The notes beneath the pieces are model-generated. The model worked only from the letters and a program-made list of their open reading frames with translations, searched no databases and was not told the origin of the DNA. Below, piece by piece: positions 1 through 40,795 of a DNA stretch of 64,000 bases. The translations under genes and the position numbers were made by a program. This DNA comes from Eledone cirrhosa (taxonomy: Eukaryota): positions 160,518,001-160,582,000 of the forward strand of contig OZ024742.1 of NCBI GenBank assembly GCA_964016885.1. The letters run 5' to 3'. Numbering within the stretch: position 1 is the first letter of the stretch; every line of letters begins with the position of its first letter.

Positions 1-202
1 AATATATATATATATATATATATATATATATATACATATATATATATATATATATTTTAAGTATATGTTGGTTGTATACCAACACCTCAGTATGCAGATT
101 GGAGTACTCGACGAAGTGCGCAGGTTGATTTGGTTACTCCGGAGTAATGTAAAATAAAATAAAAGAAATAAGTCAAATGTTTAAAATTTGGCTTCGTTTA
201 TT

Positions 203-257
203 ACTGCTATATATATTTCGGTGACAGCCATCTTTGGCTGTGACCTCTTCAGGCAGT
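203..257 (-). ncRNA. Minimal type I hammerhead ribozyme (family A, minus arm)
   Basis: Reverse complement of the motif at 459-513. Confidence 0.85.
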
Positions 258-458
258 CCGAATTAGTGTGGTAGAGACGAGTACACATGTTGTTGAGGTG
301 TATAACTTTGTCAATACTCTGATATGCCCAGTTCCTGGTTGGGTTGCTATTTCACTGAGGAACTGGAAATAACCCAACCAGGAACTGGGCATATCAGAGT
401 ATTGACAAAGTTATACACCTCAACAACATGTGTACTCGTCTCTACCACACTAATTAGG

Positions 459-513
459 ACTGCCTGAAGAGGTCACAGCCAAAGATGGCTGTCACCGAAA
501 TATATATAGCAGT
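459..513 (+). ncRNA. Minimal type I hammerhead ribozyme (family A)
   Basis: actgc-CTGAAGA-ggtcacagcc aaagat ggctgtcacc-GAAA-tatata-TA-gcagt: stem I, intact core, stem II, palindromic stem III, then AATAAA. Confidence 0.88.
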
Positions 514-1142
514 AATAAACGAAGCCACATTTTAAACATTTGACTTATTTCTTTTATTTTATTTTATAGGAAAAAGTATTATCTTACCACAATTCCTTCG
601 TTATATATATATACATATATATATGCTTATTTACATGCGTGAAGGAATTATTTGAAATACTCGATAATACATAAAGAAAAATGTTCAACAATATTTAACT
701 ATAAATTTATATATAAACCCCAGTGTATTACCGCAATTCTTGTGGGTATTTGTCTTTATTGTCAATGTTGCTATCTTTTTCCACTTTTTTTCTTTTTTCA
801 ACTTTCTCTTTTTCCCATCAAACGTTTATATGCACATGTGTGTCAATGTATATGATAATATACATATATATATATGTGTGTATTTATATATATATATATA
901 TATACATATGATGTATATATATATCATGTATATATATATATATATATATATATTTTATATATATATATGTACATATATATATGTATACATATATATGTGT
1001 GTATTTATATATATATTAATATCATATATATATATACATATACACATATATATATATATATATATATATATACAGTATGTTATTATGTTATCTATATGTG
1101 TATATACGTTTGTATGAATGTATGTATAATAATAATCATAAT

Positions 1143-1718
1143 AACTGTTTCTACTTTTGGCACAAGGCATTACTGGTACTTTATTTTATCGACCCCCGTA
1201 AGGATGAATGGCAAAGTTAACTTCGGCAGGATTTGAACTCAGAATGGCAAGGGCCGTAATTCTATACGTCAAAGCATGGCGTCCGACCCTCTACCGATAC
1301 TGCCAACCCACCGCCCTAATAATAATCATAACATTTTCACATTAGGTAATAGACCAACAATTTTTTTGGAGGGTGAACTCGATTAAACTGCTCCAGTGCA
1401 TTACTGGTACTTTACTTTATCGACTCTGTAAGGATGAAAGGGAAAGCTAACCTCGCCGGGATTTGAACTCAGAACGTAAAGGAACGTAACTATAAGCCGC
1501 AAAGCATGTTGTCAATCGCTCTACGGATACCGCCAATAATAATTGTTTCTACTTTTGGCACAAGGCCAGCAATAACCCAGTACATTACTGGTACTTTATT
1601 TTATCGACCGCATAAGGATGAAAGGCAAAGTTAACCTCAGTGGGATTTGAACTCAGTCCGTAAAGGGACGTAACTGTGCTGCAAAGCATGGCGTCCGACC
1701 CTCTACCGATACTGACAA
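1143..1718 (-). mobile_element. Three tandem tRNA-derived SINE copies separated by (AAT)n
   Basis: Minus strand has A box TGGCAGTATCGG, B box GAGTTCAAATCC, central TTTCATCCTTACGGGGTCGATAAAATAAAGTACCAG (Meta-domain-like) and an (ATT)n tail. Confidence 0.85.
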
Positions 1719-1891
1719 TAATAATGTGGTTACATAACACATATTCTATATAACAATCACAAAAATAAAATAATAATGGAAATGATGAAACAAATCCTTT
1801 AACAACGTAAACCTAACGTAGCATTCATTGCATAATATAGCACCGAAGAAGAGAGCCACACAAGGACCCATGATATTCAGACTTCATTCAT

Positions 1892-1989
1892 TGTGTGTGT
1901 GTGTGTGTGTGTGTGTGTGTGTGTGTGTGTGTGTGTGTGTGTGTGTGTGTGTGTGTGTGTGTGTGTGTGTGTGTGTGTGTGTGTGTGTG
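1892..1989. repeat. (GT)n microsatellite
   Basis: Direct observation. Confidence 0.95.
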
Positions 1990-37292: not shown

Positions 37293-38187
37293 AATAGTAG
37301 AATAATCGAGTATCGAAAAATCGGCGCGCGAGTTCACGATAAACAAAATTCGATATGAGCGGCAGAGGGCTCAATAATTCAGATAAATCAGAGCTATAAC
37401 TATCGTTAAAATACCGTCACACATAGAACAAGTCTATAATCAACCGTACGACCGAAAGATTGCGATCTGGAAGATTCGGGACATTCAGAAAAAAATATAT
37501 CAAAAAATCAATAAATTAAATGAATGTAAAAAGCATACCCGGACCCGCTAGAAAGATGGTAAATCTAGCTTCTTGGGTTTCTGTAAATCCTTAATCTGCC
37601 CTCTATCAGCTCACATAAAAATATATGAGACTTCTAGAAGCCAGCGGACAGGAAAATTTACTTCCTCAACGAGCCTTTGTCCGAACGAATGAAAAGGCAT
37701 AACCCAGGCTGAAGGAACGCACATGTAATTCAGCAAGGGAGATAACCTCTACATCCGCAAAAAATATTCGGGAAAATGTGGAAATACACATATCGAATAA
37801 GAGTGCTCAATAGACATGTTAAAATAAACAGGAGCTATTCATCATTTAATAGAATCGAAAAAAATTAACAATAAAATTAACTGGTCAATAGCTAGGTCTA
37901 GAGCTAAAAATAGTAGAATAATCGAGTATCGAAAAATCGGCGCGCGAGTTCACGATAAACAAAATTCGATATGAGCGGCAGAGGGCTCAATAATTCAGAT
38001 AAATCAGAGCTATAACTATCGTTAAAATACCGTCACACATAGAACAAGTCTATAATCAACCGTACGACCGAAAGATTGCGATCTGGAAGATTCGGGACAT
38101 TCAGAAAAAAATATCAAAAAATCAATAAATTAAATGAATGTAAAAAGCATACCCGGACCCGCTAGAAAGATGGTAAATCTAGCTTCT
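37293..38187 (-). repeat. Partial tandem repeat (37293-37572 / 37909-38187), pLTR-like, in (TA)n
   Basis: ~280 bp direct repeat with a ~617 bp period; carries the GCTC...GAGCCCT motif on the minus strand. Confidence 0.85.
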
Positions 38188-38278
38188 ATATTTAATATTA
38201 TATATATATATACATAATTATATAATTATAATAAAATAACAGGAGGCTGGACTTGTGTAAATCCTTGAAAGGTTTATT

Positions 38279-38336
38279 ATACTATGATCATTTCAATGAC
38301 CGGGTTCCGTATGAATCCGTTGATATCCTCAGGTAT
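38279..38336 (-). ncRNA. Hammerhead ribozyme (family H)
   Basis: atac-CTGAGGA-..cggattc atacg gaacccg..-GAAA-tgatca-TA-gtat, then AATAAA. Confidence 0.78.
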
Positions 38337-39118
38337 TCGAAATATAATAAATGAATGTAACAGATAAAATCCATGGGGCTGAAAATCATAGACCCGAGGA
38401 CGACCGACCATCTAGCATCTTCCACTTTAGCCGGTCTCCCTCAAGTGCTACCCATTCGGCCTACTTAAGGCCATCTGGTGAGGGGGGTAAAGCTTATAGT
38501 GTGTTACTAACCTCCCGGTCAAAGAGAAGAAAAACAGAAAGGAAGAAGAAGGAAAGTCAGCGTTAATGTCATGCTACAAGAAAAAAGACAGAAAGAAAGA
38601 GGAAGAAAAGTCAGCATTAATGCCATGCTACAGTCAGGTCAGGAATGCCGCGAAAAAGTTATTCTAAAGGAACCGTATCTTAACCGAGGTATATATTATA
38701 ACAGAGGTATATATAGTGGGGGTCTACATGGTATAATGTGTGAGCAGAAGATTGGAACGTTATATTTTTGTTTAGATTTATAGGATTAAGTTAAAAAAAT
38801 TAAAGATTAACATTATAAAATAAAAAAATTATAAAATTGAAAATTAAACAGTTTAAACATTTTTTTAAAGGTTTTGGATTGCGAGGTTTAGTTAAAGAAA
38901 GAGTCTTTTATGAAGAAACTTTAATTGTATTATAGAGATCCTCTATAAGTTATCCGAGTGGGATGTAGAGTAAAGATTATGTCCTTGTTTAGCAGTCAAA
39001 CAGCATGCGGCGACTGCAGACTCCGGCCAGCCCATCCTAACCACGTGTCAGCCATTCCGAGTGAGATCGCCTAGCGAAAGATATGGAAATCAATTATTCC
39101 AAGCACTCTAGGAATGTA

Positions 39119-39648
39119 TTCCAGGCGTCAGGTGTGCTAGTGGGAAGTCAGCCATCGTCGTTAGGCCATCGTTATACCAAACAAGTACTATTAATTTACA
39201 CAGGAGGGGGATTGTTTAAGTAGAGGGAGGCATGATACAGCTAATAATTATGATTAGGCCTAGAAATTTAAAGGTACTGGTACTATATGGCGGTCAAAAA
39301 TTTAACGTTCCAATTTTCTGTCGGACTGTTGTGTTGGTTTTCCTGGCTGCGAGACCGGCCTCCTGGTGTATAGGCCTAACTTGAGTGTTTGGAAAAATAA
39401 ATTCCCCCCTTCTTTCGGTAAATTAAATTACTCGGAGCGGATTGATTCGCCCCGGGGCCCGCCGCTCAGCCGTTTTTTGACCGCCATATAGTACCTTTAA
39501 ATTCTAGGCCGAATCATAACTATTAGCTGTATCATGCCTCCCTCTACTTAAACAAATCCCCCTCCTGTGTAAATTAATAGTACTCGTTTGGTATAACGAT
39601 GGCCTAACGACGATGGCTGACTTCCTACTAGCACACCTGAAGCCTGGA
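39119..39648. repeat. Inverted repeat (~180 bp arms) with a ~170 bp spacer
   Basis: 39119-39300 is the reverse complement of 39472-39648. Confidence 0.85.
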
Positions 39649-40377
39649 TTTTGTTGCTATCACCAAGAATGAGGAGGAGAAGCAGTGTGTTCTTCAAGTA
39701 GTCGAAGCTCATCGTCGCAAGGTCCCGGATTTCAAAAAAGAAACTCTGAAAAAAATATGACTGGAGTTAACTTAACTGAACTTGTTTCTTCCTTTATATT
39801 CAAAGCTGGTTTACTAAATATAGCTGGATTAATAAAATAAAAAATTATTGTATGGTCATATTTGTTTTCACATTTTCATGATTTCATGCAACATAATCAC
39901 ACTTTCCACTATAATAACCATGATATAGGCAAGACTCAAAATAATTTATTTTAAACAAAATATGTTTTATTTTACCAATTGGGGCATTTATAATGGGAAA
40001 ATACACAGGGAGCGTTAGTATTGTGACCTTGGTTTTTATGGCACACTCCAATATATATATATATATATATATATATATATATATATATATATATATATAT
40101 ATATATATATATATACATATATATAATATATATATATATAATATATATATATATATATATATATATATATATATATATTTATTTAGGTTTGTTGGTTCAC
40201 CACTGGATAGAACTGGTCATTCCGTATGGTCAATCTTGATGTAATATTATGGAGAGTACTCAACGTAGTGCAGTTCACCCGTCTTCGTTTGTGTAGTTGG
40301 TGGTGCTAATACGGAGTTAATTATTATAAATAAAATAACAGGAGGCTGGACGGGTGTAAATCCTTGAAAGGTTTATT

Positions 40378-40435
40378 ATACTATGATCATTTCAATGACC
40401 GGGTTCAGTATGAATCCGGTGATATCATCAGGTAT
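40378..40435 (-). ncRNA. Hammerhead ribozyme (family H)
   Basis: atac-CTGATGA-tatc accggattca tac tgaacccggt catt-GAAA-tgatca-TA-gtat, then AATAAA. Confidence 0.85.
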
Positions 40436-40795
40436 TTGAAATATAACAAAGGAATATAACAGATAAAATTCATGAGGCTGAAAATCAGAGACAAGAAGAC
40501 GACCGACTAATTAGCAGCTTCTACTTCAGTCGGTCGGCTTCCTAAAACTGTATTTCTTTGGAGATACGAAATATTTATACATATTGTATAAAGCTATGCT
40601 TGAAGCGAAATCCTATTTCTTTTTTAGTTTCCATTTATTTAATATCATTGAATATTTACTCCAGTAACTTGTTGAGTGCTCTAAATCAGTTATAAACATT
40701 TATATTTGTCGGACTTCCAACAAATTAAATATCCCTTCTACTTATATATATATATATATATATATATATATATATATATATATATATATATATCT

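Follow-up and report, generated by a model that had tools for sequence, protein, structure and literature searches.

Several hammerhead ribozyme families in a 64-kb stretch of the Eledone cirrhosa genome (GCA_964016885.1; OZ024742.1, 160,518,001-160,582,000; hereafter the window, to which positions refer) share a short motif, RCTC...GAGYVCT, in their 3' tails, and the question is which elements carry it and what it does there. The initial annotation regarded the families as unrelated and proposed a conserved RNA helix with a 3' motif, possibly a signal for recognition or priming by reverse transcriptase (RT). The families are instead, judged by their protein motifs, divergent members of the Hydra clade of Penelope-like elements (PLEs) with their non-coding derivatives, and the motif is half of a larger element, whose invariant U bulge, inner stem, second copy and linking helix had gone unnoticed. 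RT recognition or priming is the best-supported role, as the motif covaries, lies in the pseudo-long terminal repeats (pLTRs) of PLEs and has insertion ends tied to it, but its unit is the pair. On sequence evidence, the two hairpins, M1 and M2, likely bind the element's own RT and define a priming site immediately 5' of each of them, two in all.

The motif pair and its carriers

All eight sites first listed in the window contain the motif, three of them one base away from their approximate positions. Its placement between the ribozyme and the (TA)n target holds, with variant hammerhead cores (by eye) in family N, family D and the repeat at 37293; the GCTC/GAGC (G-C) form of the last two is also as described. 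A strict rule matches 15 times in the window, against a mean of 0.375 and a maximum of 2 in 40 first-order resamplings, an enrichment that is partly circular since the rule was tuned on the same data. In the whole genome (3.0 Gb), a tight pattern gives 108,827 matches versus 2,307 with a reversed control, these being copies of a few dozen families and one 58-bp satellite, not independent events, while the pattern of the pair occurs in 1,791 places versus 60 in its control. Pair searches at other spacings were dominated by one satellite and yielded the family N junction only. Matches antisense to coding sequence in four loci (L002, L047, L045 and L048) were discarded as chance, and the one at 6786-6834, antisense within an RT-coding fragment of a long interspersed nuclear element (LINE), was also taken as such.

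Tandem junctions have the order hammerhead-M1-linker-M2-ATG, the first ATG lying mostly 10-42 nt past M2. Followed by a Hydra-type open reading frame (ORF), M1, M2 and ATG are found in 11 families of this genome (E, E2, B, F, A, A', G, N, D, the family of the broken element at 62 kb and the L279 variant); the motif had been predicted in the pLTRs of autonomous PLEs, and there the motif pair was found. The host element was recognized at locus L016, where a family E tail is joined to an RT unlike those of Neptune/Poseidon-like elements, and a search with this RT returned 41,626 first-look candidates as well as near-intact copies. Matches from a GIY-YIG search were mostly Neptune and Poseidon-like elements lacking the motif. 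The Hydra-type elements have a single ORF (743 aa in L134 and L131) with the RT, a GIY-YIG endonuclease (EN) at the C-terminus, RWR and DKT motifs (RWK, and DKT instead of DKG, in the clade's definition; R-W and DKT conserved in the protein alignment) and, by eye, a CxCX5C linker, no CCHH, and CxxC and CxH near the EN C-terminus. Their pLTRs contain a hammerhead, with variant cores in some families, and they are inserted in (TA)n. Many foreign contigs have 2.4-2.8 kb, the clade being generally under 3 kb, and family E reaches ~4 kb owing to a long 3' UTR. By these protein motifs, the hammerhead and the (TA)n targets, the carriers are Hydra-clade PLEs. None of the 148 window frames gave a Pfam match above the curated cut-off. 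In Foldseek, the model of the homologue P0006 (mean pLDDT 91) matches telomerase RT best; its VIA-align comparison with Candida TERT (Z 14.8, rmsd 5.9, 312 aligned residues) is tied with those of several other RTs.

Two side observations concern these elements. Hydra-type RTs are abundant in this genome (41,626 and 26,194 first-look candidates with two queries, many with long open frames), far above the few families described for molluscs. The hammerhead core is of the U3-A8 type in Hydra-clade families at 62017-62200 and in L196 and L260-L269, and of the U4A type in family D.

In other organisms, three of the six Hydra consensi in the supplement of Craig et al. (PMC8557442) carry the motif unremarked and one carries a variant (by eye). 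The coral Hydra-2_Amil and the sea cucumber Hydra-2_Ajap have one motif each after the hammerhead, Hydra-1_Ajap has two ahead of the ATG, and a copepod element has variants. Six 8-mers occur 27 times in that supplement, with line breaks hiding some occurrences: 5 are in the Hydra file, 4 of them within motifs, and the other 22, in the Naiad and Chlamys files, are unlike the motif. We also gathered a foreign set of 96 loci from marine metagenomes and host-contaminated metagenome-assembled genomes. In 53 of them at least 130 nt precede the ORF, and here the pair is present in 32, a single motif in 10 and none in 11, with five controls on the same loci giving 0-1 pairs; two of the 32 pairs (L297 and L365) were mis-parsed, the pair being visible by eye, and several motif-negative loci are not tandem junctions or have variant motifs. 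No relative was found among viral contigs. L358-L375 are animal-type Hydra PLE contigs inside bacterial GTDB genome bins, probably host contaminations.

The motif seems confined to this clade in the co-resident elements sampled. In what we take, from protein motifs, to be Neptune and Poseidon-like PLEs of the same genome, a small sample, no motif was found in 8 hammerhead tails and 3 3' UTRs, and five stretches of junction gave one match, without the U bulge and in coding sequence. Intact copies of these PLEs terminate at (TA)n, and several of them have a hammerhead tail. As separate observations, one Neptune family (among L086, L090, L081, L083 and L093) has two end sites separated by ~65 nt, and at Neptune junctions an AU-rich end lies 20-30 nt before the ATG; a different short hairpin-like word comes after these sites (by eye), possibly a clade-specific analogue. 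Rfam gave no match at the gathering threshold in the window and 10 loci; by E-value, the 150 matches listed out of 255 were microRNA models on microsatellites and palindromes. No description of the motif pair was found in full-text searches of the PLE and TAR literature, with subscription papers, Repbase notes, figures and bioRxiv supplements outside reach.

Covariation of the hairpins and their linking helix

Each motif is a bulged hairpin, RCUC-[variable stem]-U-N-GAGY-VCU, in which RCUC leads into a variable inner stem and the 3' side has a two-base bulge beginning with U, followed by GAGY and a VCU box. For the covariation analysis, 47 motif pairs were reduced to 36 families by dropping 11 as redundant (family D among them, perhaps wrongly via its AT-richness), with one M1 5' arm (L262) mis-picked. 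The parse imposed the GAG/CUC core and the box, and did not impose the bulge, the inner stem or the linking helix. For 33 of these families, the identity between RTs ranges from 29 to 70% (median 45%). The bulge begins with U in 72/72 motifs. Of the successive inner-stem pairs, 69/72, 47/67 and 42/51 are canonical, where shuffled sets give 55, 28 and 20 (p 0.0002, the floor), the relatedness among families being reduced and not fully removed in these permutation tests; the excess is seen with a 2-nt bulge only, and other bulge lengths show none.

The A-U to G-C compensatory change reported at the outset is present in the outer pair, and it turned out to be the weakest covariation, with 3 parsimony steps on the tree; the inner stem and the linking helix carry the strong signal. 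As first inner pair of M1, 17 families have U-A, 14 C-G and 2 another pair, which takes 10 parsimony steps. Rare swaps also occur in the core (UCUC/GAGA and GCAC/GUGC). The box after each hairpin is ACU in 50 motifs, GCU in 13 and another in 9 (n=72), never ACA, with pyrimidines required by the parse at box positions 2-3. Single-sequence ensembles favour M1 and M2 in 31/36 families each, and RNAalifold on 17 sequences of this genome finds M1, M2 and the linking helix unaided, with double changes in 10 of 20 pairs. As an aside, in the sister elements L329 and L349 the outer pair is altered in both hairpins and a G stands before RxRW, possibly a protein-RNA co-change; being sisters on the tree, they represent one event and were not counted.

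The 24-nt flanks 3' of M1 and M2 form cognate duplexes of -10.7 kcal/mol, compared with -5.7 between families and -7.2 with a reversed partner, and the best pairing register falls at 19-24 in 28/36 families versus 28% of non-cognate pairs. We infer that the two flanks pair into a helix, whose strand a' adjoins the ATG. Since each hairpin stands at the 5' end of one helix strand, the domain would be approximately two-fold in geometry, with the helix holding the hairpins in rough symmetry. Family H and a ~605-bp repeat, both without a PLE ORF, keep the two motifs and the linking helix.

Insertion ends and their explanation

Insertions end 3-14 nt before M1 (site 1) or M2 (site 2). In this genome, 105 ends were assigned to site 1, 82 to site 2 and 34 elsewhere, and 45 copies read through; at site 1, the distance to M1 has its mode at 6-7 nt. 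Downstream of M1, 43 (TA)n ends were placed: 30 of them 2-9 nt before M2, 11 just before a degenerate motif and 2 elsewhere. Among 81 foreign ends, 9 are site-1-like, 8 site-2-like, 53 unclear or without hammerhead and 11 read-through, and in 4/4 site 1 ends that could be checked the distance to M1 is 7-11 nt. Where both ends of a two-ended inverted insertion could be classed, each site accounts for one of them (29/29). Restricting this to loci not chosen by motif leaves 17/17 mixed, where random pairing would give 48% (~3e-6), and a stricter end-calling method gives 13/13. The two end classes mean that the optional tail consists of M1 plus the linker. M1 alone is copied to 3' ends, and this is the copy seen initially; M2 is never copied to an end.

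These observations could be accommodated as follows. A protein dimer, suggested by the geometry of the RNA and by the study of Poseidon_Ac (PAc; PMC11167929), would grip both hairpins while its GIY-YIG domains nick both strands of the (TA)n target. AU-rich sequence precedes both hairpins, and each freed 3' end would anneal to one of these stretches, where the hairpin would place one RT active site, with the helix fixing the spacing. The cDNA begun before M2 would copy the linker and M1 (the tail), the one begun before M1 would not, and a template switch would join both into an inverted insertion. Priming from both strands has a precedent in L1 twin priming, which this process would resemble, except that it would be programmed. 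Only a tandem-spanning or circular RNA would serve as template, given that M2 is never copied to the ends, in agreement with the need for more-than-unit copies reported in the accessible text of PMC4209133. A tail on one end of inverted PLE insertions was already known (PMC3846280 and PMC8557442, from the sections available). Our confidence is evenly divided on programmed twin priming as such, that is, on a two-fold RNA domain loading two telomerase-related RT subunits, each priming one target strand at its own site. An RW(K/R) motif near the N-terminus is conserved in the clade and, as a guess, may read the R-U-N-GAG/CUC-Y core.

Several results weigh against paired hairpins that set two priming sites. 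The motif was not seen by eye in 2 of the 6 published Hydra consensi, and Neptune elements, including a family with two end sites, finish at (TA)n without it, so PLE tails in general do not depend on it. RNAalifold gave no consensus structure for 30 divergent foreign sequences, whose loops were misaligned by MAFFT. Counts of G-U versus A-C (inner stem, 17 v 9; linking helix, 5 v 4) give little preference to RNA over the opposite strand or DNA. The linking helix is supported by the ensemble in 28/36 families, and just 14/36 have the cognate flank as their best partner. The central pair is swapped (GCAC/GUGC) in the foreign elements L359 and L366, which counts against a strict U.A-U triple. The pair count excludes ends classed as "other". 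In the 605-bp repeat, 11 ends precede its degenerate motif and are 73-75 nt away from M2, the pairing partner of M1.

The weak wobble bias leaves room for the motifs to act as DNA, with the EN recognising a cDNA or integration intermediate and cutting 5' of each of them, so that the ends would be resolution cuts and not priming sites. End positions alone do not separate cutting from priming; moreover, Craig et al. ascribe the tail most likely to EN-mediated resolution (PMC8557442, in the text available), and the Drosophila virilis Penelope EN required the tail to cleave plasmid DNA, as cited in the available part of PMC11167929. We nevertheless hold such cutting to be improbable, as a bulged covarying hairpin and a long-range helix require a single strand, site 2 ends precede M2, which is itself absent from the end product, and PAc tail ends are RT start sites in vitro according to the same part of PMC11167929. 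A comparably small chance is given to a translational operator or folding switch, in which a protein bound near the AUG would shut translation or aid the hammerhead and priming would simply follow AU-rich microhomology. The ATG mostly 10-42 nt after M2, the contact of strand a' with it, the AU-rich sequence ahead of both hairpins and the protein-assisted cleavage of the PAc hammerhead (PMC11167929, in the text available) would suit it. However, non-coding H and the 605-bp repeat retain both motifs and the helix, the ends cluster before each motif though AU-rich stretches are common, and the 29/29 mixed ends would be left unexplained. Translational or folding control may still hold as a second role.

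Near-invariance across RTs that are 29-70% identical would also suit a conserved host partner, such as an H/ACA-type or arginine-rich protein stabilising or circularising the RNA, if the motif is not itself a small ribozyme. H/ACA RNAs have ANANNA and ACA boxes and a pseudouridylation pocket, and a pair of hairpins, each with a short ACU-like box behind it, looks similar. But the box is VCU and not ACA, the bulge is one-sided with no pocket-like internal loop, no Rfam family matches, and the motif tracks one RT clade while being absent from the co-resident Neptune and Poseidon-like elements sampled, which makes a host factor or ribozyme the least probable of the explanations considered, with very little credence left to it.

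Recognition of the pair by the element's RT would bear on a question still open in the field, the choice of internal start sites by PLEs and the one-sided tail of their inverted ends. The in vitro study of a PLE placed the start sites and not the RNA signal, and here the position of the M1/M2 element predicts both insertion ends. If programmed twin priming is true, it would explain why PLEs in general have inverted ends and a tail on one side, other clades using their own paired signals, and a portable RNA handle of ~110 nt would be available for two-strand target-primed insertion. The element is conserved from this genome to coral and sea cucumber, and few mutations would suffice to test the mechanism. 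It could be the shared signal by which non-coding hammerhead repeats are mobilised, a marker for annotating the ends of Hydra-clade elements, and a comparison point for RNA recognition by telomerase-related RTs.

Repeats of the window and comparison with known systems

The window contains both end classes side by side. A two-ended inverted family E insertion (25256-25737) has M1 at its left end (25315-25337, minus; site 2) and a right end that stops before M1 (site 1). A second family E insertion (32520-33145) has M1 at 33062-33083 (plus; site 2) and a left end at site 1. The family B insertion at 40804-41220 also has its left end at site 1, with the hammerhead at 41033-41079 and M1 at 41138-41165 at its site 2 end. 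In the family N insertion (31882-32076), M1 is at 31927-31953 (minus) and the other end stops before M1, the end classes being assigned by eye. Another family B M1 lies at 26166-26193 (plus), and the opposite (minus) end of that copy halts before M1 near 25981.

Further M1 hairpins belong to family A (103-145, minus; hammerhead core at 216-252), whose junction leads to a Hydra-type ORF in L151 and L274; family D (17437-17484, minus, and 23598-23646, minus, the latter with a variant hammerhead core at 23698-23707), with M1-M2-ATG-Hydra ORF in L080/L271; family N (27133-27159, plus; 36934-36960, minus; 44059-44085, plus), with M2 and a Hydra ORF in L196; and family E2 (40658-40680, plus), with junction and ORF in L180. 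The M1 of non-coding family H is at 40255-40317 (minus; hammerhead core at 40390-40431), and H junctions have M2 and no PLE ORF. An M1-like hairpin is found in a rearranged E-related copy (25821-25871, minus), and a decayed M1 of another family (53473-53523, minus) belongs to an inverted pLTR that has a Hydra-type RT fragment next to it (53853-53996, plus). The broken Hydra-clade PLE at 62017-64000 (plus) has an inverted pLTR with a U3-A8 hammerhead variant and RT and EN fragments, and extends beyond the window; intact copies of its family have variant M1 and M2.

The ~605-bp non-coding repeat is present as ~1.5 head-to-tail units (37294-38187, minus), with M1 at 37982-38010 and 37366-37394 and M2 at 37802-37835, and the strands a and a' at 37964-37973 and 37789-37798. 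Its third motif, degenerate by a C-C mismatch in the outer helix, lies at 37880-37904, 3-5 nt after an insertion end; M1 pairs with the intact M2 further on. The hammerhead core (37601-37609, minus) is a variant with one extra base, and its fold looks type III and not type I (by eye). Separately, a 58-bp tandem satellite (C1:14,234,975-14,243,738 and beyond; L197-L255) has as its unit the family N M1 hairpin plus flank, without hammerhead, and over 100 units were listed.

Among the other repeats, broken LINE fragments occupy 5531-7039 (minus) and 9518-15105 (plus); we take them to be an RTE/R4-like RT and, in tandem, APE-RT copies that carry a zinc finger. An abundant ~180-bp SINE-like (short interspersed nuclear element) family occurs at 1146-1719, 4925-5076, 15676-15902, 16375-16535, 27267-27474 and 55574-55781, among other places. 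Palindromic or inverted-end repeats are seen at 44329-45439, 43117-43292, 22166-22420, 49910-50864 and 61017-61577, and hammerhead cores in some repeats of this kind at 18802, 22685, 34443 and 35294.

The Hydra clade of Craig et al. 2021 (PMC8557442) has the same protein motifs, pLTR hammerhead, (TA)n targets and tail at one end; the accessible text describes the hammerhead and no RNA element downstream of it, and gives a usual size of <3 kb, in contrast to the ~4 kb of family E. The closest mechanistic precedent is PAc, in which, according to the sections available of Frangieh et al. 2024 (PMC11167929), the tail is delimited by two neighbouring RT start sites downstream of the hammerhead, cutting and extension affect both target strands, initiation needs RNA 3' of the start, and the protein is predicted to dimerise, all of which resembles the scheme proposed here. 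However, PAc belongs to a different clade, its binding element is hypothesised in the first 172 nt of the ORF and not defined there, and no strand preference of its start sites was seen in vitro. Non-LTR retrozymes (PMC7229834; bioRxiv 10.64898/2026.07.22.740005) resemble the 605-bp repeat in being non-coding tandem repeats tied to PLEs with a hammerhead, which in the 605-bp repeat is a putative variant of type III appearance; the available descriptions of retrozymes contain no shared recognition signal, whereas the 605-bp repeat shares the motif pair, and no other detected similarity, with autonomous families.

The bulge pyrimidine follows a paired base and is placed where a triple with an A-U pair might form, as in the arginine sandwich of HIV TAR and 7SK, in which, in the available part of PMC6189040, a bulge U after a paired purine precedes G-A with the A paired to U, and ASM3 of 7SK also has a 2-nt bulge. 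The strand order within the hairpin is reversed in M1/M2, and the match is one of secondary structure only. The telomerase template boundary element and SL5 of DRT10 (bioRxiv 10.1101/2025.10.16.682844, in the text available) are likewise stem-loops beside the template of a related RT, but they lie 5' of it and stop synthesis, whereas M1 and M2 lie 3' of the proposed start sites. The available sections on the epsilon element of hepatitis B virus (PMC10534774) and the 3' hairpin of eel UnaL2 (PMC1636434) describe bulged or looped hairpins needed for RT loading, as proposed here, and the UnaL2 hairpin is common to a LINE and a SINE just as M1/M2 are to autonomous and non-coding elements. Both of those systems have a single hairpin and a single start, whereas here two hairpins at fixed spacing flank two proposed starts and the downstream one is not copied. 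RT-binding hairpins are thus known, and what is new is a pair that flanks two putative start sites, each serving a different end of one insertion.

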